DNA of 51,351 nt, from assembly GCA_016765265.1 (NCBI GenBank), contig JAESQG010000001.1:1-51351 (forward strand). Reading direction: 5' to 3'. A model generated the notes under the pieces. The model saw nothing but the letters and a program-made list of their open reading frames with translations. It ran no database searches and was not told where the DNA came from. A program made the position numbers and the translations under genes. Positions 1 to 50,833 of this stretch are shown here, in pieces. Source of the DNA: Pseudomonadales bacterium (GTDB taxonomy: Bacteria > Pseudomonadota > Gammaproteobacteria > Pseudomonadales > DC-out160). How positions within the stretch are numbered: position 1 is the first letter of the stretch; the number at the start of each line of letters is the position of its first letter.

Positions 1-96
1 GGGACCAGGACCGGGTACGGGTACGGGGACGGGACCAGGACCGGGTACGGGTACGGGGACGGGGACGGGTACGGGGACGGGTACGGGTACGGGGAC
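1..96. repeat. Hexanucleotide-phased tandem repeat (GGGTAC/GGGGAC/GGGACC/AGGACC) with an exact 30-bp unit at 1-30 = 31-60
   Basis: gggaccaggaccgggtacgggtacggggac occurs twice back to back, followed by GGGGAC/GGGTAC units to nt 96. The same repeat family closes the window. Confidence 0.95.
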
Positions 97-129
97 ACCC
101 TCCCTCCGGGACTTGTAATCACAGTATAA
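1..129 (+). CDS. 3' part of a ~73-aa Gly/Tyr/Asp-rich repeat microprotein (5' part at 51259-51351; the ORF crosses the window ends)
   Basis: Frame 1 from nt 1 reads GTRTGYGYGDGTRTGYGYGDGDGYGDGYGYGDTLPPGLVITV, stop TAA 127-129. It is exactly in phase with the ORF that starts at 51259 (93 nt = 31 codons to the window end). Confidence 0.5.
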   Translation, partial: GTRTGYGYGDGTRTGYGYGDGDGYGDGYGYGDTLPPGLVITV

Positions 130-233
130 AAACCAGCCTCGACAACTTTAGCGAGATGATCGAGGCATTTACCCCGCCCAGGATGGACGGGAACGCCAGA
201 ACGGCGGAGCCGAAAGCATCGAAAGGATATCGA

Positions 234-410
234 ATGAAAGCAACTGTATACGCGCGTCTCTACTGGAAGCATTGGGCTATTGCCCTGTCCGCCGCCGCCC
301 TTGGGATCTTGTTCCTGTCCGCCCTTGGCGGATGCTCAGCGATCGAAGGCGCGGGGCGAGACCTCTCAGACATGGCGGGTGCCACCCGCGAAGCGATGAA
401 GCAAGAATAG
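234..410 (+). CDS. Small lipoprotein, entericidin (EcnA/B)-like
   Basis: MKATVYARLYWKHWAIALSAAALGILFLSALGGC gives a hydrophobic signal plus an LGGC lipobox-like site. The mature CSAIEGAGRDLSDMAGATREA resembles the entericidin core C-N-T-x-x-G-x-G-x-D-I. AAAGGA lies 7 nt before ATG 234 (the track ORF starts at 156). Confidence 0.55.
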   Translation: MKATVYARLYWKHWAIALSAAALGILFLSALGGCSAIEGAGRDLSDMAGATREAMKQE

Positions 411-480
411 AAACACGCCCCGCCAACGCTGAAATGTTTTGTCGGGGATTGCGGAATAACCCGCGAGGAAAGATAATCAA

Positions 481-1203
481 ATGAATGATAAAGATCGGAA
501 TACTGGGGACCGGAATACTGGGAGCCTGAATACTGGGGACTGGAATACTGGGGACCTGAATACTGGGGACCGGAATACTGGGAGCCTGAATACTGGGGAC
601 TGGAATACTGGGAGCCTGAATACTGGGAGCCTGAATACTGGGGACCGGAATACTGGGGACCGGAATACTGGGGACCGGAATACTGGGGACTGGAATACTG
701 GGGACCGGAATACTGGGGACCGGAATACTGGGGACTGGAATACTGGGAGCCTGAATACTGGGGACTGGAATACTGGGAGCCGGAATACTGGGAACTTTTG
801 CACAAACACACCTTCTCCAATAATGTTCGATAAGCCGTGCCTGAACCACACCCATAAAGATATTGCGGAAGATATATATAAATCAATGCCGTACATAAGT
901 CTGGTATCTTGGGTTCGTTTTTCAAGTATGACCGATGACCAAAAGCGCGAACAAGAAAACGCGGAACACCTTAACGGCTTCTTGCTCGCGTTCGACTCAA
1001 TCCAGGATGCCGGGCGGAACGCTTGGGAGCAACTCACCCAAAGTGAACGCGATCGGCACGAAAAACTCATTCGCGCCCTCCCTAACTTTGACGCAGCCAA
1101 GTTTCTGAAATGCACCGGGATTGATCTGGATTCAATCCCCACTGACCGCCCGAAGAACATTGTTGTAGACGGCGTGGAATACGCGCCAGTCACCAAAGAA
1201 TAG
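481..1203 (+). CDS. Repeat protein: ~100 aa of (R/W/L)NTG(D/S) pentapeptides plus a unique ~135-aa C-terminal region
   Basis: ATG 481 lies downstream of GAGGAAAG. The 15-bp array is read in frame and continues into non-repetitive sequence (FCTNTPSPIMFDKPCLNHTHKD...VEYAPVTKE) before a stop at 1201-1203. Confidence 0.55.
   Translation: MNDKDRNTGDRNTGSLNTGDWNTGDLNTGDRNTGSLNTGDWNTGSLNTGSLNTGDRNTGDRNTGDRNTGDWNTGDRNTGDRNTGDWNTGSLNTGDWNTGSRNTGNFCTNTPSPIMFDKPCLNHTHKDIAEDIYKSMPYISLVSWVRFSSMTDDQKREQENAEHLNGFLLAFDSIQDAGRNAWEQLTQSERDRHEKLIRALPNFDAAKFLKCTGIDLDSIPTDRPKNIVVDGVEYAPVTKE
496..795. repeat. 20 head-to-tail copies of a 15-bp unit (C/T)(G/T)GAATACTGGG(GAC/AGC/AAC)
   Basis: Counted directly. Unit types are CGGAATACTGGGGAC, CTGAATACTGGGAGC and TGGAATACTGGGGAC plus minor variants, with no spacers. 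Four of the six frames (one on plus, three on minus) are open across it in the ORF track. Confidence 0.97.
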
Positions 1204-1212
1204 AATCCTCAG

Positions 1213-1248
1213 CCCTGCCCTCGGAGAAATCCGGGACGCGGGGTTTTT
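1213..1248 (+). terminator. Weak candidate intrinsic terminator after the repeat-protein gene
   Basis: Imperfect GC hairpin (ccctgccctcgg / ccgggacgcgggg) followed by TTTTT at 1244-1248. Confidence 0.3.
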
Positions 1249-1285
1249 CAACACCAGCCGGGCAAATGCCCAAGAAGGGGGAACG

Positions 1286-1519
1286 ATGAAAACCGTGACC
1301 AAAGTACATATTGAGCCAGAAAACGCCCAGGATCAAGAGTTTGCCCAGCGTTGCAAGGTGATCGGATCACCAACCCTCTCCCGCCTAACCGGGATCAGCA
1401 CCGGCAAGCTCTCGGCGTGGTACATGGGCCTGAACTTCCTCACCCTCGAACAATACGAGCGACTTCTTCGGATGGTTATTGCAATGGAAAAAGTTGCCGA
1501 TCCATCGGATGATAGTTAG
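1286..1519 (+). CDS. Small HTH protein (Cro/XRE-like regulator candidate)
   Basis: GAAGGGGGA lies before the ATG. SPTLSRLTGISTGKLSAWYMG looks like a helix-turn-helix. Confidence 0.5.
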   Translation: MKTVTKVHIEPENAQDQEFAQRCKVIGSPTLSRLTGISTGKLSAWYMGLNFLTLEQYERLLRMVIAMEKVADPSDDS

Positions 1520-1579
1520 CCCTCGCAAACTTGGGGGCAACACTGCCACACCCCGCCGGCCCGTCCTAGATCGTAAAGT

Positions 1580-1650
1580 AGCCCGCGCGACCCAAAACAG
1601 AACAGGGCTCGCGGGAAGTGGGGGATCTGAAACCAACCAACCGCGAGCCC
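1580..1650 (+). other. GC-rich alternative-pairing segments in the 173-nt leader of the 1693 gene
   Basis: gggctcgcgg (1605-1614) is the perfect reverse complement of ccgcgagccc (1641-1650). cccgcg (1582-1587) can also pair with cgcggg (1610-1615). ATAAAATGTT follows. Confidence 0.4.
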
Positions 1651-1692
1651 ATAAAATGTTCCGTCACAGCCCAGCCTTGAAAGGAGGATCAA

Positions 1693-1941
1693 ATGAGTGT
1701 ACCAAATCCAGATCAAGAAATCAACAAAGCAATAGGGGTTATCGAATCCAAGTTCGTATCCGATGCCCTGAACCACGAATCCACGCCGCAGGAAACCCGA
1801 TGGTGCGAGATCGAACGCGCCGCACAAAGGGTGGTCGAGAAGTTCGCAGAATGCGAGTTGTCCGGCGCCAAGGTGCCCGTTGGCGCATGGTTCCTGCTTC
1901 TCACGCTCAAAGAGTTGCTTGAGAACCCGCCGAAAGATTGA
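1693..1941 (+). CDS. Hypothetical protein
   Basis: A strong SD, AAAGGAGG, lies 6 nt before the ATG. 82 aa with no recognisable motif. Confidence 0.6.
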   Translation: MSVPNPDQEINKAIGVIESKFVSDALNHESTPQETRWCEIERAAQRVVEKFAECELSGAKVPVGAWFLLLTLKELLENPPKD

Positions 1942-1944
1942 GTT

Positions 1945-1975
1945 CGTGTAAAAACTTTACAGCGTAAACCGCGAT
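1945..1975 (+). promoter_or_regulatory. Copy A of a three-copy intergenic motif (palindromic TGTAAA-AAC-TTTACA plus TAAACCGCGAT)
   Basis: cgtgtaaaaactttacagcgtaaaccgcgat starts 4 nt after the stop of the preceding gene. Its first 18 nt are identical to copy B, and it is about 80 percent identical to copy C. Confidence 0.5.
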
Positions 1976-2051
1976 AACACGCCAAAACTGGCTATAATCA
2001 CACAAAACAGACTCTTTGGACGGTACAAGGGGTGAACCGAAAGGAAACAGA

Positions 2052-2669
2052 ATGAACTTCCCATCAAGACTAATAGACACACAGCTTGTCGTGACCGCTT
2101 CGGAAGACGAGATCCGCGACGAACCAATGATTTTTTGGGGATCGTTTGACTGGGCATATAAAAACGGCGGGCCACTGACCCGCCAAGCCATAGTTCATAT
2201 GTGCAAGATTTGGCCCGACTGTGACGGTGTTATCGACACGCGATCACATATGCTCATGCCGGGAATGTACCCGTGTATACCCGGATGGCACCTTGACGGC
2301 AGACCGCGATATCCAGAAACCGGCCAGCCAATTTTCAGTGAGGACAAGGCTGGAAGCGCGATGCTGTGTGTTATTGGCCCTAGTGCGCTGACCGAGTTTG
2401 TCGTCGAAGACATTGAGATATCCAAATGGTCGGCGACCCACACCTATAAGTCATGTAGCGAACAAATAGCCGAAATGCGCCCGTCTACCCAAACCGTCAA
2501 ATCTGGGCACCTATATCAGTTTGATGGACACACATGGCATCGAGGAATGCCCTCGGAACATCGGTGTTGGCGTTGGTTTTTTCGCGCGTCTATCAACGAT
2601 GGTCGATCGCCGGTCAATGAACTTCGTACACAAGTCCAGGTCTATACCACGATTGATGGGGGGTGGTAA
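2052..2669 (+). CDS. Hypothetical protein with a possible HxD...H metal site (weak dioxygenase/cupin-like guess)
   Basis: AAAGGAAACAGA precedes ATG 2052. GWHLDG and HTWHRG motifs are present; there is no other support. Confidence 0.5.
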   Translation: MNFPSRLIDTQLVVTASEDEIRDEPMIFWGSFDWAYKNGGPLTRQAIVHMCKIWPDCDGVIDTRSHMLMPGMYPCIPGWHLDGRPRYPETGQPIFSEDKAGSAMLCVIGPSALTEFVVEDIEISKWSATHTYKSCSEQIAEMRPSTQTVKSGHLYQFDGHTWHRGMPSEHRCWRWFFRASINDGRSPVNELRTQVQVYTTIDGGW

Positions 2670-2671
2670 GA

Positions 2672-3376
2672 ATGAAACACACAACCAAATGCGTCCTGTA
2701 CGCCCGATATTCACCGAGGCCGACCGACAAACTCGCCAACCTTGCCACCGCAGACCAGCAACTTGATGCGTGCCGCAAGTACGCCAAAGAGAAGGGCTAT
2801 GAAATCCTTGGCGAGTTCCTTGATGAACAGGTATCCCGAGATGCCGAGATCAAGCCACAACTCGATATGGCCATCGGCTCCATTCGGCGCGGCCAGGTTC
2901 TTGTGATTGCCAAGCCAGACCGTATCGGAGGCGGGTTCCCGGCTGCAAGCCTGTACAACTACTGCGATACCCGGAAGATCAGGATTGAAGCGGTTGAGGG
3001 GGGGCTCAATGGAGACTCACCCGAGGCCAAAATGATCCGAGACATCACCGCGATCGTCACCCAATACGAGCAACGGATCATCAAGAAGCGGACCAGCACG
3101 AACATGCGATATCGCCAGAGCAAGGGCCAGAAAATGAGCAACCTTGCGCCCACCGGGTTCAAGGCACACCCCGCCGACCCGAGCAAGTGGGTGGTTGACC
3201 GCAAAGAATCCGCAATCGTCCAAGAAATCTGCGCAATGTACGATCAAGGGCTCAGGGCACCGACAATCACGAAAATGCTCAACGAACGGGGCTCAAGGCT
3301 CCGTGACAACCCGTGGAACCGATGCACCGTGCGAAGGATCTTGATACGAAACGAGAAGATGACCGCCGTGGCGTAA
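2672..3376 (+). CDS. Short serine recombinase (resolvase-type catalytic domain plus part of a 'recombinase' domain)
   Basis: CVLYARYSPRP (the YxRxS nucleophile motif) and KPDRIGG (DR) are present. APTGFKAHPADPSKWVVDRKESAIVQEICAMYDQG...WNRCTVRRILIRNE resembles the large-serine-recombinase recombinase domain. The ORF stops at ~235 aa. Confidence 0.7.
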   Translation: MKHTTKCVLYARYSPRPTDKLANLATADQQLDACRKYAKEKGYEILGEFLDEQVSRDAEIKPQLDMAIGSIRRGQVLVIAKPDRIGGGFPAASLYNYCDTRKIRIEAVEGGLNGDSPEAKMIRDITAIVTQYEQRIIKKRTSTNMRYRQSKGQKMSNLAPTGFKAHPADPSKWVVDRKESAIVQEICAMYDQGLRAPTITKMLNERGSRLRDNPWNRCTVRRILIRNEKMTAVA

Positions 3377-3526: not shown

Positions 3527-3943
3527 ATGCACATGGGCATACCAAATCATTACGCTTTTTCGTCGGCAGGCACCAACCTGTCCACTTTCTATAGGCTATC
3601 TAACCGTGGAATCCCCTCTGAAAAAGCGGGCGACCAGATCGGGCGACTGTTTGCCACCTCGTTCGCGGACGGCGCAGCGGGCACCGCAACTCTTGTGCTT
3701 GCCGACAAGCGTGGTACGATCCGATACCTGCAACTCGATGCAACCATCACCCCTACAGCCGATCGAAGCGATGCAGCAGGCACCGCAGGGGCATACCTCT
3801 GCACGGTCGATGTGAGCGCAACCGGCAAAGACAAGTTTGATCTCATGGGTGCCAACGCTGAACTCGACTGGTTTATCGGCGTGACCGACATGGGCGGGCT
3901 TACAAGCCTCGATCTGTACATCGACTACTCACCCGCGCTATGA
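3527..3943 (+). CDS. Hypothetical protein translationally coupled to the terminase (positional small-terminase candidate only)
   Basis: GGAGA precedes the ATGs at 3527 and 3533. The stop overlaps the terminase ATG (ATGA at 3940-3943). The sequence is Ala/Gly/Thr-rich with no TerS motif recognised. Confidence 0.55.
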   Translation: MHMGIPNHYAFSSAGTNLSTFYRLSNRGIPSEKAGDQIGRLFATSFADGAAGTATLVLADKRGTIRYLQLDATITPTADRSDAAGTAGAYLCTVDVSATGKDKFDLMGANAELDWFIGVTDMGGLTSLDLYIDYSPAL

Positions 3944-6543
3944 CCCAAGGCCGCAAGTCCAAGCCGTTTATCGCCTACCCGCCCGATGGGGGGGATGAAT
4001 ATCGTGGTGCAAGCCTTAAGGATTTCTGTGATTCCCAAGGGCTTGTCTACGCTTCGTGCTCGGCGTGCTGTGCTGGACGACAAAAAAACCACAAAGGATG
4101 GAGATTCCAATGGCTCGAAAACAGTGGCCCAAAGGCTCTCCACAAGCCCAGTGGATCAACGCCAACCGTGCAGGCCCCGCCCGAAACGACCGACGCGCTC
4201 GGGTTTCTCGACGAGCCCTTGCCCACCGATTCAGCCTCAAGCGATACAAACGGAGATGGCACTGTTAGCACCAAGGACAGGATCCGAAAGGCATTCAAGA
4301 AACTCTCCGAGATGTGTATGTACTACTTGGATAACCCGGACGAGACACCCGCAAGGTGGAACCCCGATGTGGTTCTCCGTGTACTCAAGGGCGAGGCTGA
4401 GGCCAACGGCATTGACTGGTCGAATATCGCCGATGAACGCACACCACTCGAAAAAGCCGCTGACAGCTACGATGCCATGCTTCTCGATCCTAGCGCAATC
4501 TACGAGAATGTCGATATAACACTCGATGCCATGATCTTTGGGTGCGAGGAATCAACCCGGCGAGGAATGGAACAGTTCGAGCGGTACAACAAGATGAAGG
4601 CCAAGGATCTTGTGCGTGCTGGAACGGTGCCCGAAGGTGAAGATCCTGAGGAACCGCCCGGCCCAAAAACAATAGCGGAGGCGGGGAAACAGTGGATTAG
4701 CCGCCTCCGCGCAATCAAGGACATACGAGACTCAATCACAGATCCCCCGACCCCCGGACTCAGCCGAAAAGAACGCATCGTCTACGAAGCAACCCGCCTC
4801 TTGCGGTTCATGCTCTATGTTTCCCGATCCGACATTGGAGATAAACAGTTTCGGCTACGGGGCGACATATACATTATCGGTGACCCGCATGTAGAGATGT
4901 CAATGTCACTTTGGCTTTCAAGGGAGGGGTACGCCAGAAGCGAGTACGGGCTCGTCGGACCTGGCGATCTCATCGGCCCCGACGGTGCCAAGTTCGAGTT
5001 CGAGGGTATCAAATACGAAGGCGTGATGCTTTTGTACCCGCCCCGTATAGGCAAATCAAATGTTATTGCAATGGATATGGCACTACTTATCAATGACTAT
5101 CCAAGATTCCAAATGGGGTATGTTCATCGTGCAGAAAAAGAAACCTCAAAAACAATCAGCAAAACGGCAGCGTTGTTTGACATAAAATCATCCGCAGGAA
5201 AAAGAAATCACAGTCTTTACCCGTACAGGCTTGACAAGAATGACAATAATACGACCACGATTCGCGTCTGGAATAAGGAAAAAACGGCAAATCCCAATGT
5301 TATTGGCGTGGGCGTGACATCTCGGGGACAGGGCAACAATCTCAATCAAATGTATGTTGACGATGTGACTCACAGGGAAGATCAAACGCAGGCCGCAACG
5401 CGAGAAAATATCAAAAAACTCATATCGTCTACATGGCTTACCCGATTCCAAGGAAGCGAAGGTTTCACTGTATTTTCAGGATACCCGTGGCACCATGAGG
5501 ATGTTCTCTGGTCTTATCTGAAAAAAGCAAGAATCGCCAAGAAAACACTAGGGAGAGAAGGCGTACCACTATGGGTATCAATGAGTCCTGTCGGCGGACC
5601 ATCAACAAATCCAAAGTTCAAGTCAATCTGGCCGGAGGTGTACGACGCGAAATGGAATAGAAGAAAATACAAACTTTTATCAGACGATTCAGCGTGGAAC
5701 GCCAACTACATGCTCGACCCGATCAGCGACGAGAACCGCATCGTCCGTCAGGTCCGGCTATACGATATCGAGCATGAATCCGCCCGCAAGTTCATTGAGA
5801 ACGGCGTTGAGCGGTATGTCTCATGCGATCCAACGGCCAAGGGCGACGGAACCGGCGACAAAGTAGGCTGGGTACAGGCCATGCTCGGGCAGGAACGCAT
5901 CGAACGGCAAGAGGACGGTCTACGGCGAATCAAATACGAGGACCAGATCCGAATCACGATCCAAGAAGAGTTCCCTGCTACCCAAATGGATCTCTCCAAC
6001 CGAATCGCCCAACTTGCCAGGGGAGAAGCGATTGACGAGGTATTCATGGAGGTTGTCACCGGCCTCGGATCGGCAACCATCGAGATGCTGGAAGAAATGC
6101 ACGGAATCCATAGCGTGACCGAGTGTGGTGTTGGGCACAAGAACAAAGAGCAGCGATTGAGAGCGGTCGCACAGATGCTCGAAAACTCCAACCCCATGCT
6201 CCCCGCCGTGGTCCTGTTTCCCGCACGCCGGGTCAACGACGAGAACGGGAACCCGACCGATCAACTCGAACCGCTCGACGAGATCAAACCACTCATCAAC
6301 TATGTCATCAACTTCAAGGTGGCAAGCGGATACCACTCACTCGACGCGCTCACCCAAATGCTCAACAAGTGCCGGTCGCGGTTGGCTATCGCGGGCGGGC
6401 AGGTTTCTAGAGAAGCACGAATGGCCGAGGAAAATAAAGGACGCATGAAAAAGCATATTGAGCGTACAATGCGTAAGAACAGCGACGAAACATTGGGCAA
6501 CCGGCGTTCAATGGCATCGTATTACAACACCGCCGGGGTATAA
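3940..6543 (+). CDS. terL: Terminase large subunit with a long N-terminal extension
   Basis: Walker A-like LLYPPRIGKS at aa 365-373, Walker B-like NQMYVDDVTH, and a nuclease-region VSCDPTAKGDGTGDKVGW. 867 aa. The first ~60 aa show a NUMOD1-like pattern (F-x-S...G-R-x-K-x-H-K-G-W-R-F). Confidence 0.85.
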   Translation: MTQGRKSKPFIAYPPDGGDEYRGASLKDFCDSQGLVYASCSACCAGRQKNHKGWRFQWLENSGPKALHKPSGSTPTVQAPPETTDALGFLDEPLPTDSASSDTNGDGTVSTKDRIRKAFKKLSEMCMYYLDNPDETPARWNPDVVLRVLKGEAEANGIDWSNIADERTPLEKAADSYDAMLLDPSAIYENVDITLDAMIFGCEESTRRGMEQFERYNKMKAKDLVRAGTVPEGEDPEEPPGPKTIAEAGKQWISRLRAIKDIRDSITDPPTPGLSRKERIVYEATRLLRFMLYVSRSDIGDKQFRLRGDIYIIGDPHVEMSMSLWLSREGYARSEYGLVGPGDLIGPDGAKFEFEGIKYEGVMLLYPPRIGKSNVIAMDMALLINDYPRFQMGYVHRAEKETSKTISKTAALFDIKSSAGKRNHSLYPYRLDKNDNNTTTIRVWNKEKTANPNVIGVGVTSRGQGNNLNQMYVDDVTHREDQTQAATRENIKKLISSTWLTRFQGSEGFTVFSGYPWHHEDVLWSYLKKARIAKKTLGREGVPLWVSMSPVGGPSTNPKFKSIWPEVYDAKWNRRKYKLLSDDSAWNANYMLDPISDENRIVRQVRLYDIEHESARKFIENGVERYVSCDPTAKGDGTGDKVGWVQAMLGQERIERQEDGLRRIKYEDQIRITIQEEFPATQMDLSNRIAQLARGEAIDEVFMEVVTGLGSATIEMLEEMHGIHSVTECGVGHKNKEQRLRAVAQMLENSNPMLPAVVLFPARRVNDENGNPTDQLEPLDEIKPLINYVINFKVASGYHSLDALTQMLNKCRSRLAIAGGQVSREARMAEENKGRMKKHIERTMRKNSDETLGNRRSMASYYNTAGV

Positions 6544-45680: not shown

Positions 45681-46014
45681 GATCCCCTTTCTCTGTCACC
45701 CAAGTATCGTGAATCACATCAGCGTCGATGCGATCCAGAAATGATATTGCCAACTTCGCCGCGTCGCGTGGTCCGATAGAACCCAAAGGCAGCCTTGTAT
45801 CGAACAACCACTCATGGAAACGAACGAAGTCTGCCTTGGAAATAAAACGCTCCAAGCGATCCATGTCTCGCCATTGCTTCTTACGCACACGGACAAACAC
45901 GCCAATCGTGTACCGATCCGCCGTCCGGCAAAACGCACGATAATCCTTCGCCACCTCGCGGAACCCGCGATCAAGCACCGTCGAAGTGTCGCCAATCAGA
46001 TCGTTCTCAATCAT
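45652..46014 (-). CDS. Hypothetical protein
   Basis: 120 aa. The start region GGTGAAGGATGATT is the same as at the TyrRS start and overlaps the TyrRS stop. Confidence 0.5.
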   Translation of the reverse strand: MIENDLIGDTSTVLDRGFREVAKDYRAFCRTADRYTIGVFVRVRKKQWRDMDRLERFISKADFVRFHEWLFDTRLPLGSIGPRDAAKLAISFLDRIDADVIHDTWVTEKGDLDEWAKTEG

Positions 46015-47143
46015 CCTTCACCATAACCCTTTCACCCACAACAACAGACACACAGTTCCTCTTACCCCTTTGTAATACACCATTTTTCATGATAATCTCA
46101 TGTATAGAGGAAACGGTATTCCCGTCAATCTTCACGCCGCGACCAGTAATGAGCCTTCTCGCATCCGAACGAGACTGGGCCATTCCACACAAAACAAGAG
46201 CATCAACAACGGTAGATCCGAGAGGCACATCCGTTTTACCATGAGGGATGGCAACTTTCTGCTTGCACACCAAGTCAAACCTCTTCATTGAATCTTTCGC
46301 GGCTTGCCTGCCATGAAGCATCTCAACGACCGCAAGTGCCAGTGCTTGTTTTTTTACAACCTCTAGCCCTGGCGGAGAAGAACACTGGAACAAAAGAGAA
46401 AACCACTCATCCATCAGGCCGTCTGGAATGCTCATTGTTTTTCCAAAAGCGTCGTCGGGCGTGCTGTTCATTGAAATATGGTTTCCAAGCGACTTGCTCA
46501 TCTTGTGGCTTCCGTCTGTTCCAGTAAGTATCGGAAACAGCATAATCGCCTGCTTTTTCATCCCAAGACGACCCATCAAATCCCTTGCAAGTGTACAGTT
46601 TGCCAACTGGTCATTGCCCCCAATCTCAAGGTCGCACCCAAGGCTGATGGAATCCCACGCCTGAAGGACAGGGCACACCATCTCAAGAATGGATATTGAC
46701 CCCCCGGAAGCATGTCTTTTCGAGAAATGATCCCTGCCAAGCATTGAACGAATAGACACACTGCCAAGAAGCTCAAAAAGATCATCCATTGGCGGTCTTA
46801 TGGCCGAGTTCTTTACAAAACCCCACTCCCCCCCATCGCCCATGAATCGACATATCTGGGCCATGATATCAGCCGCATTTCTCGATGTTTCACTAAACGA
46901 AAGCAATGGCCTCGATGTGTCTCGCCCCGACGGATCGCCAATCTGTCCGGTTATGTCACCAATGACAACAGTACCCTTGCAACCACGACGAACCAAAGAA
47001 CGAAATGCTGAAAACGGGACAAGGTGCCCAATGTGCAAATCGCGCCCCGTCGCATCAATGCCGATCTTTACATGCGACCCCAACGGAATGCCATTCGCAA
47101 GGCCGATCGTTTGCGAAGCCGTCTTTTCAAGATCCGTAATCAT
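46007..47143 (-). CDS. tyrS: Tyrosyl-tRNA synthetase (type 2, with a C-terminal S4-like domain)
   Basis: GIDATGRDLHIGHLVP...VIGDITGQIGDPSGRD (HIGH region typical of TyrRS), LQAWD, GGNDQ, HKMSKSLGN (KMSKS), and a C-terminal SRSDARRLITGRGVKIDGNTV (S4-like). Confidence 0.9.
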   Translation of the reverse strand: MITDLEKTASQTIGLANGIPLGSHVKIGIDATGRDLHIGHLVPFSAFRSLVRRGCKGTVVIGDITGQIGDPSGRDTSRPLLSFSETSRNAADIMAQICRFMGDGGEWGFVKNSAIRPPMDDLFELLGSVSIRSMLGRDHFSKRHASGGSISILEMVCPVLQAWDSISLGCDLEIGGNDQLANCTLARDLMGRLGMKKQAIMLFPILTGTDGSHKMSKSLGNHISMNSTPDDAFGKTMSIPDGLMDEWFSLLFQCSSPPGLEVVKKQALALAVVEMLHGRQAAKDSMKRFDLVCKQKVAIPHGKTDVPLGSTVVDALVLCGMAQSRSDARRLITGRGVKIDGNTVSSIHEIIMKNGVLQRGKRNCVSVVVGERVMVKDD

Positions 47144-50095: not shown

Positions 50096-50833
50096 ATGAA
50101 AACAACAATCACCTTGCCGAATACCCTTTCGCATTGCATAAGCCGCGAGAATGGCCGATATGCGATTGAGGGATTGAATCTCATCATCAAAGACGGGAAG
50201 GGATCGGTAGCCGCCACAAACGGGCGGATTTTGTGTGTCCGTGATATCGGCGAGATCGACGGCGAAAACTCGCACGCGATCATTGCCTCCGATACGATCG
50301 GCAAGAACCCCACCAAAAACGCCAAATACTACCAAATCAGTATCGACGGCGACACGGTAGGCGGATTCGTAAAAACTGGACAAACCGTATCGAAACAAAT
50401 GATCGGTAAGGATCACAAGCCCAAAGACGGCGACCTCGGGCAGACTTCTAGATTCGTCGAAGGATCATTTCCACCTGTAAGCGATATTCACCCGTCCGAT
50501 ACCGAATACCAAGCCTTTTGCGTAAACCCCAACCTTCTCAACGCTCTAGCCCAAGCCGTACAAGGAGAACCGTACGAATCGCAGGGCGTTGTGCTGCTTG
50601 TGCCGATCAATCCTGACGACACCCGAGCAATCAATCTTGACACCGAACTGGGCAGCGACAAGGATCGTGGGCTTTACACCCGAGCCCAAACCCCAAAACC
50701 CGCGTTTATGGTCGGCACCGATAAGAAGTGCGCGGGTGCCATCATGCCAATCAGTCCAGCGGACGAATCACACGGGCACGGATACGCATCAATCGCCCGA
50801 AATCTGATCCTGAACCACACCCCCGCCAGGTGA
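50096..50833 (+). CDS. DNA polymerase III beta-clamp-like protein, two-domain size
   Basis: GAGGATCTGAT precedes the ATG. By-eye matches to DnaN domains II-III: RYAIEGLNLIIKDGKGSVAATNGRILCV versus RYYLNGMLFE...LRTVATDGHRLAV; SRFVEGSFPPVSDIHP versus SKLVDGRFPDYRRVLP; C-terminal AGAIMPI versus YVVMPM. Confidence 0.5.
   Translation: MKTTITLPNTLSHCISRENGRYAIEGLNLIIKDGKGSVAATNGRILCVRDIGEIDGENSHAIIASDTIGKNPTKNAKYYQISIDGDTVGGFVKTGQTVSKQMIGKDHKPKDGDLGQTSRFVEGSFPPVSDIHPSDTEYQAFCVNPNLLNALAQAVQGEPYESQGVVLLVPINPDDTRAINLDTELGSDKDRGLYTRAQTPKPAFMVGTDKKCAGAIMPISPADESHGHGYASIARNLILNHTPAR

Follow-up and report, generated by a model that had tools for sequence, protein, structure and literature searches.

A headless phage gene with twenty x-N-T-G-x pentapeptide units and a conserved tail domain

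The repeat gene and its surroundings

The stretch of DNA analysed here (the window, 51,351 nucleotides) is a phage contig, near the start of which a gene with a long array of 15-bp units sits in a run of small plus-strand accessory genes. The features of this gene and the neighbouring genes that bear on its interpretation are as follows.

465 to 470, plus strand: Shine-Dalgarno-like GAGGAA, 10-12 nt 5′ of the start codon (read from the sequence)
481 to 1203, plus strand: complete gene for a 240-aa headless protein with a Pentapeptide_2 array and a tail domain, PHROG 14105 (open reading frame, Pfam and PHROG matches; the exact protein is present in public collections)
481 to 495, plus strand: N-terminal cap MNDKD, a degenerate first unit (the same kind of start in 49 of 147 representative relatives)
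496 to 795, plus strand: twenty 15-bp units encoding (R/L/W)-N-T-G-(D/S/N) (Tandem Repeats Finder, unit table, three Pentapeptide_2 matches and structural model)
796 to 837, plus strand: cap at the C-terminal end of the array, FCTNTPSPIMFDKP (arrays of the family are followed directly by the motif F-[CN]-T-x-T-P ... F-[DN]-K-P)
838 to 1200, plus strand: conserved C-terminal tail domain, WV..MTD.EK ... LPNFD..F..TGID ... DG..Y (183 proteins, alignments, pLDDT >90)
2663 to 3376, plus strand: small serine recombinase, 237 aa (PHROG 95/125), 1.9 kb downstream of the array
3940 to 6543, plus strand: large terminase, 867 aa, approximately 3.1 kb downstream of the array
50096 to 50833: RusA-like gene, upstream of the repeat gene

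Cut from base 496, the array comprises 20 complete and uninterrupted 15-bp units, as had been proposed in a sequence-only reading of this DNA. Tandem Repeats Finder reported it at 496-792 (period 15, 19.8 copies, 0% indels, score 433) as the top-scoring tandem repeat of the window. Bases 3-12 and base 15 of the unit are invariant in all 20 copies, and variation is confined to bases 1 (C/T), 2 (G/T), 13 (G/A) and 14 (A/G). The sequence-only reading had placed the variation at positions 1-2, which agrees with the unit table, and at positions 12-14, which has to be narrowed to 13-14 within the codon formed by bases 13-15. All variants within the array are non-synonymous, codon 1 being CGG, CTG or TGG (R, L or W) and codon 5 being GAC, AGC or AAC (D, S or N), and the codons for N, T and G are constantly AAT, ACT and GGG across the 20 units. 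When the last residue of each unit is paired with the first residue of the next, the junction pairs are DR (7), SL (5), DW (5), DL (1) and SR (1), the first three of which correspond to the main unit types recognized earlier.

The frame that begins at ATG 481, which is preceded by a Shine-Dalgarno-like motif as the sequence-only reading had stated, runs from MNDKD through the array into 135 further residues and ends at the stop codon 1201-1203. This 135-residue stretch consists of the array end cap and the tail domain. All three frames of the minus strand are also open over the array, so that all six frames are open in total; the caution that openness proves nothing here was therefore justified. 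The longest exact repeat inside the array is 56 nt (647 versus 692) and represents the duplication of a three-unit block (45 bp). An identical 20-unit gene with its flanks is present in a JGI contig that was deposited separately (L087) and in an ENA scaffold of 51,470 bp (L086). Considering this identical gene in a separate deposit and the limited length of the longest exact internal repeat, it is unlikely that the copy number is an assembly artefact.

Several additional features of the contig were observed. Immediately upstream of the repeat gene lies a 58-aa open reading frame (234-410, plus strand) with a signal peptide and a lipobox (LSALGGC), which is kept, except for residues 3-5, in L003, one of the contigs from other samples that carry the same repeat gene. 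The two ends of the contig (51259-51351 and 1-129) form one 6-bp (GGGKAC) array, which suggests that the contig is probably circular or circularly permuted and was broken inside this repeat. When joined directly, the ends encode a 73-aa microprotein in frame, MPLADIPKTRCGHGDGYGYG...(G-x)n...GDTLPPGLVITV, whose orthologues in L003 (63 aa) and L004 differ in repeat length and composition; it represents a second variable coding repeat, located approximately 350 bp 5′ of the pentapeptide array. A weak match (1.7e-5) to PHROGs annotated as HNH endonuclease covers the first ~66 residues of the large terminase, and a 378-aa open reading frame at 46007-47143 (minus strand) matches PHROG 9270, a tyrosyl-tRNA synthetase family (1.2e-54), in a phage genome of just 51 kb. 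The phage contig has a G+C content of 53.7% and is the longest of its genome bin, the mean of which is 43.8% over 573 contigs (87% complete, 5% contaminated); the assignment of the phage to that bin, and thereby to the host of the bin, looks doubtful.

Coding status and relatives

The 240-aa protein matches the Pfam family Pentapeptide_2 (PF01469, XNXGX) in three stretches (1.6e-31, 108.4 bits versus a cut-off of 26.4), and a six-frame search returned three Pentapeptide_2 matches of 43-51 bits over the array. Each of the 20 units follows the X-N-X-G-X pattern, with N as its second and G as its fourth residue. In addition, residues 42-219 align with positions 109-282 of the 297 positions of the PHROG 14105 profile (function unknown; 5.9e-54), which covers both array and tail, and the C-terminal part alone still matches the same PHROG (1.2e-12). 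No match of the 240-aa protein to the other pentapeptide family, PF00805, was found at E<=1; in the best PF00805-like register, L stands at the centre of 6 of the 20 units, the others having R or W there. This agrees with the earlier remark that the unit lies outside the A(D/N)LXX consensus. Searches of NCBIfam and PADLOC gave no match for the protein or its neighbours.

The sequence-only reading had described the 135 residues behind the array as a unique C-terminal domain. The array is indeed read in frame into a real domain, but this domain is far from unique: HMMER searches with the C-terminal 135 residues found 183 representative proteins at E<=1e-3, three of which are chance matches to eukaryote-type fn3/PKD repeat proteins, leaving approximately 180 family members counted as clusters at 50% identity. 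They belong to phages and prophages of Firmicutes, Bacteroidota, Proteobacteria, Planctomycetota, Verrucomicrobiota and Acidobacteriota. The aligned homology extends from the last units through the cap to W-V...M-T-D-x-E-K, then to L-P-N-F-D...F..T-G-I-D and to a final D-G..Y hairpin. The tail domain corresponds to no Pfam, NCBIfam or PADLOC family and to no PDB sequence or fold; searches of PDB sequences with profiles from the full-family and tail-only alignments gave no match even at E<=10. When 41 tail-only relatives were compared with Pfam at E<=1, only scattered chance matches appeared, such as HMG_box_2 in 2 of the 41.

The tail domain occurs alone, behind an array, or behind a head domain (often DUF7666) followed by an array. 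Among 147 representative relatives, one third (49) have a short cap with the array beginning within 15 residues, and the same number have the tail with fewer than three units; the remaining proteins comprise 41 whose head exceeds 60 residues and 8 with a short leader. Examples of headless starts in these relatives are MSDEKHNTG, MKDKDGNTG and MADEKKNTG. Since a short cap followed by an array is found in 49 of the 147 relatives, ATG 481 is supported as the true start. Homologues that start downstream of the array had been named in advance as an observation that would speak against a coding repeat. Such homologues do exist, as about one third of the tail family lacks repeats, but they do not refute coding, because an equally common third starts with a short cap and then the array. 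By its sequence, the window protein adds evidence that the array-plus-tail module may work without a head domain.

To examine the repeat at the codon level, 52 related loci were taken from viral contigs, and array codons were read in 50 arrays. Between lineages, N is encoded by AAC or AAT, T by ACC, ACA, ACT or ACG, and G by GGC, GGG, GGT or GGA, whereas within any single array one set of N, T and G codons is nearly fixed. Diversity between lineages together with uniformity within arrays shows that the peptide motif is selected between lineages and that the array DNA is homogenised by recent unit duplication. An element acting at the DNA level would give the opposite codon pattern, which argues against the iteron-like or packaging-related role that the sequence-only reading had kept as an alternative, as the relatives keep the peptide and not the DNA.

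It may be argued that the repeat acts as DNA (iterons, or a packaging or recombination site) and that its open frame is incidental, given that all six frames are open across the array and that the terminase and serine recombinase genes lie nearby (the distance to the terminase had been put at about 3 kb, close to the value listed above). However, unrelated phages keep x-N-T-G-x at unrelated positions using all synonymous codons, the homology runs in frame into a conserved domain, and the within-array variants all change the amino acid. Moreover, Rfam searches and promoter and terminator scans of 1-3000 and 1-2100 found nothing above chance, the array itself having no Rfam match; the sole promoter-like site (797-824), just past the 3′ end of the array, scores no better than shuffled sequence. 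A role as a DNA element is thus extremely improbable, and the array of 481-1203 is coding.

The closest named relatives are Barba18A gp041 (QCQ61745.1) and Barba19A gp048 (QCQ61888.1), which are 'pentapeptide' proteins of Rheinheimera phages (tblastn 5e-35, 115 genomes; Foldseek 1.4e-9). They share with the window protein an x-N-T-G-x array (25-26 strict units), the end cap and the C-terminal LPNFD domain, and their arrays likewise vary at unit residues 1 and 5 and differ by one unit more or fewer between species. In contrast, the Barba proteins possess a 100-aa DUF7666 head that is missing from the window protein, their glycine codon is GGT instead of GGG, and they belong to 80-kb myoviruses unrelated to the 51-kb window phage. 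The last degenerate units in the Barba phages keep N-T with different codons. The absence of DUF7666 (PF24703) applies to the 240-aa protein, to the contig and to the whole genome bin, and the same search finds this domain in Barba19A at 5.8e-23. A near-identity DNA search of window positions 1-3000 against isolate phages gave no match. Metagenome and viral collections scanned for exact patterns from the flanks of the array likewise yielded no match, perhaps because these collections leave out near-identical records. A second Barba gene annotated as 'pentapeptide' encodes a canonical PF00805 protein (L002 5629-6036; L059 2312-2929; Barba9A gp045 and Barba18A gp043); it lies approximately 1 kb downstream of the PF01469 gene and also belongs to the early transcript cluster, at a lower level.

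Pentapeptide_2 repeats are best known from the PPE-MPTR proteins of mycobacteria, which are secreted, reside in the cell envelope and carry a PPE head. The window protein has the x-N-x-G-x unit in common with them and scores far above the family cut-off, but it lacks a PPE domain, resides in a phage and carries a different conserved tail. A Pentapeptide_2 match implies a common type of repeat and does not by itself demonstrate a common function. Our search of the literature on DUF7666, on PF01469 together with phage, and on pentapeptide together with Rheinheimera found no functional work, and the gene is unmentioned in the Barba genome paper. Judged by its sequence, 481-1203 is a headless member of a functionally uncharacterised phage family that has already been catalogued (PF01469, PF24703 and PHROG 14105).

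Copy number and the variable residue pair

Four contigs from other samples (L003-L006) contain the same gene with 10 units, compared to 20 in the window. The 80 bases upstream of the gene are identical between the two alleles and the tail is 99% identical; over longer distances, the flanks are 97.3% identical over 3.2 kb upstream and 99.0% identical over 2.7 kb downstream. When the 20 units are aligned with the 10, the expansion in the window lies in the middle, between collinear ends of the array. D predominates at residue 5 of the window array and N at residue 5 of the 10-unit allele. Each of the two alleles is identical across several assemblies; the samples from which the two alleles came are BioSamples SAMN07571242 and SAMN07571245 and JGI 3300029924, 3300029949, 3300029807 and 3300033050. 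What is specific to the window is its headless architecture together with this clean pair of alleles, which adds an example of 20 versus 10 units on nearly identical backgrounds.

Other members of the family show similar changes. In the Barba phages, the span of the locus is identical in at least 55 of the 60 isolates listed (115 matched, 110 of them at least 99% identical), the exceptions being one genotype with one unit fewer and two genotypes with one unit more. Two further related contigs, L020 (358-1599) and L042 (5689-6750), have the same head and tail with 39 and 27 strict units, respectively. L020 also holds a duplicated multi-unit block, an instance of array growth by higher-order duplication. 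The array changes in size as whole units, or short blocks of them, are duplicated or lost. Its copy number shifts readily between lineages that have diverged by 1-3% and is not visibly unstable among isolates. The proposal that the copy number is changeable has thus been borne out by the window, the Barba phages and the L020/L042 pair, and in view of the near-invariant copy number among Barba isolates, "fast" evolution refers to change between lineages and not within a clone.

The sequence-only reading had also called the array a contingency-type repeat, that is, a phase-variable locus at which frequent copy-number change within a population switches or tunes expression. This proposal is encouraged by the near-identity of the units as DNA, by the different copy numbers of close relatives, and by the fact that 16 of the 52 related viral contigs end inside the array (including L015, L023, L024, L028, L036, L040, L046-L050, L054-L056 and L058), as would be expected from heterogeneity or from unresolved repeats. 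These contig ends indicate that the arrays are frequent break points of metagenome assembly, where copy numbers should be taken as lower bounds; however, they are explained equally well by repeats longer than the assembler word size. More importantly, a 15-bp unit within an open reading frame keeps the frame at any copy number, which makes an on/off switch impossible, and both the reproducible 20- and 10-unit alleles and the common locus length of the listed Barba isolates speak indirectly against frequent change within populations. The contingency label was therefore not upheld and such a locus appears quite improbable here; the array is a fast-evolving coding array rather than a phase-variable switch.

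The variable residues of the array are only the two at each unit junction, and they are drawn from a small alphabet. Across the family, diversity between units of one array is 0.52 and 0.54 at the first bases of codons 1 and 5, compared to 0.10 and 0.12 at the third bases of the T and G codons, which are fourfold degenerate. The higher diversity at the junction codons, approximately five times that of the silent sites, recurs in all 43 arrays compared (Wilcoxon p = 1e-8). The family mostly has D, N or Y (NAY codons) at residue 5 and R, W, C, S or G (NGN codons) at residue 1, so that L and S of the window array are minority choices in the family. As unit duplication homogenises all 15 bases alike and the excess nevertheless persists, amino acid differences at the junction appear to be retained or favoured. 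The window adds to this a quantitative sign that two junction residues are kept diverse.

Predicted structure and possible function

A structural model of the 240-aa protein was built with AlphaFold2 from a 40-sequence alignment (mean pLDDT 81, pTM 0.60). The tail is predicted as a confident alpha/beta domain (pLDDT >90), and the array is predicted with a single beta-bridge every five residues (pLDDT 51-84). As this part of the model is moderately confident, we infer rather than observe which residues belong to the core and which are exposed. The predicted coil and tail domain do not resemble any solved structure with which they were compared, Qnr-type proteins included, and the four-sided right-handed beta-helix (Rfr fold) was not recovered. 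The order of unit types showed no periodicity at lags 1-8, so that the sequence gives no independent support for any particular number of units per turn. The array is mildly acidic, with a net charge of -4 per 100 residues.

A pentapeptide-repeat-like beta-helix had been suggested for the array on the basis of its period. A repeat coil is indeed predicted, but the unit belongs to Pentapeptide_2 and no solved pentapeptide-repeat protein matches the model. These observations also bear on the possibility that the protein is a DNA mimic of the Qnr/MfpA type, in which a right-handed four-sided beta-helix would block gyrase, restriction enzymes or another DNA-binding defence protein. The window protein shares with Qnr, MfpA and AlbG (PF00805) the five-residue period and a predicted repeat coil, its shifted register G-(D/S/N)-(R/L/W)-N-T is loosely similar to A(D/N)LXX, and the Barba phages carry a true PF00805 gene close to their homologue of the repeat gene. 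On the other hand, it has neither a match to the PF00805 HMM nor a fold match nor a strongly acidic surface, and the position expected to hold L or F is taken by R or W. With the model unlike any solved pentapeptide-repeat protein, we regard such a mimic as very unlikely.

With regard to the time of action, transcript data are available for one cultured relative. Barba18A gp041, confirmed as the PF01469 homologue, belongs to the first temporal cluster and peaks at the first time point with a log cpm of 15.0, a level similar to those of DNA polymerase and primase and far above those of its neighbours (PMC9305737, Table S2); these are RNA-level data on a headed homologue from a phage other than that of the window. 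Around the copies of other relatives, a predicted HTH regulator, an SNF2-type helicase and a DNA methyltransferase were recognized by eye from translations, with no family search, and no neighbouring gene is generally conserved across the 52 viral loci.

This context is relevant to the idea that the protein is part of the virion or of a surface, for example a fibre or adhesin, and that its repeat length determines the host range. Phage fibres commonly vary in repeat length, and the gene shares its direction of transcription with the structural genes. Nevertheless, the protein has no signal peptide and no match to a structural PHROG, its gene is situated outside the modules for head and tail, the Barba homologue falls in the early and not the late transcript cluster, and the copies of relatives are found among replication or regulatory-looking genes. 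A structural role in the virion is highly improbable on these grounds.

Taken as a whole, these data are likely to be best explained by a real phage gene in which a cap, 20 x-N-T-G-x units and a conserved tail form a modular protein of early or accessory type. In the predicted structure, the stacked units would form a rod-like beta-coil whose core contains N, T and G, and the variable pair might be exposed, which would create a surface of quickly changing length and chemistry. The constant tail domain could serve as a working or docking module, and the protein may act early within infected cells, its target most likely being a host or defence partner. Members of the family are very widespread, and one cultured phage expresses its copy early and strongly at the RNA level. 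Should the variable surface serve for binding, the family would represent a large unexplored layer of phage-host interaction; if not, it would be a well-behaved coding repeat in an accessory gene.

A more specific extension of this modular-protein explanation, which we consider unlikely, is that the arrays, headed or headless, are a natural and quickly re-tailorable phage recognition scaffold, in which duplication, loss and point change of units would re-aim the constant tail at new host or defence targets. In such a scaffold, the beta-coil would display one residue pair per unit, with D, N, Y or S followed by R, W, C, S or L. If this were true, the arrays would be a recombination-driven counterpart of diversity-generating retroelements or TAL-type codes, and the common headless form would imply that array and tail constitute the minimal working unit. 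The repeat-variable diresidues of TAL effectors offer an analogy only: in both cases near-identical units differ almost solely at two adjacent residues with a small alphabet, although the TAL unit has 33-35 residues instead of 5, its structure is helical and not predicted beta, and there is no homology. In the arrays studied here, variation is concentrated, as in TAL repeats, in two adjacent residues per unit and lies above the silent variation.
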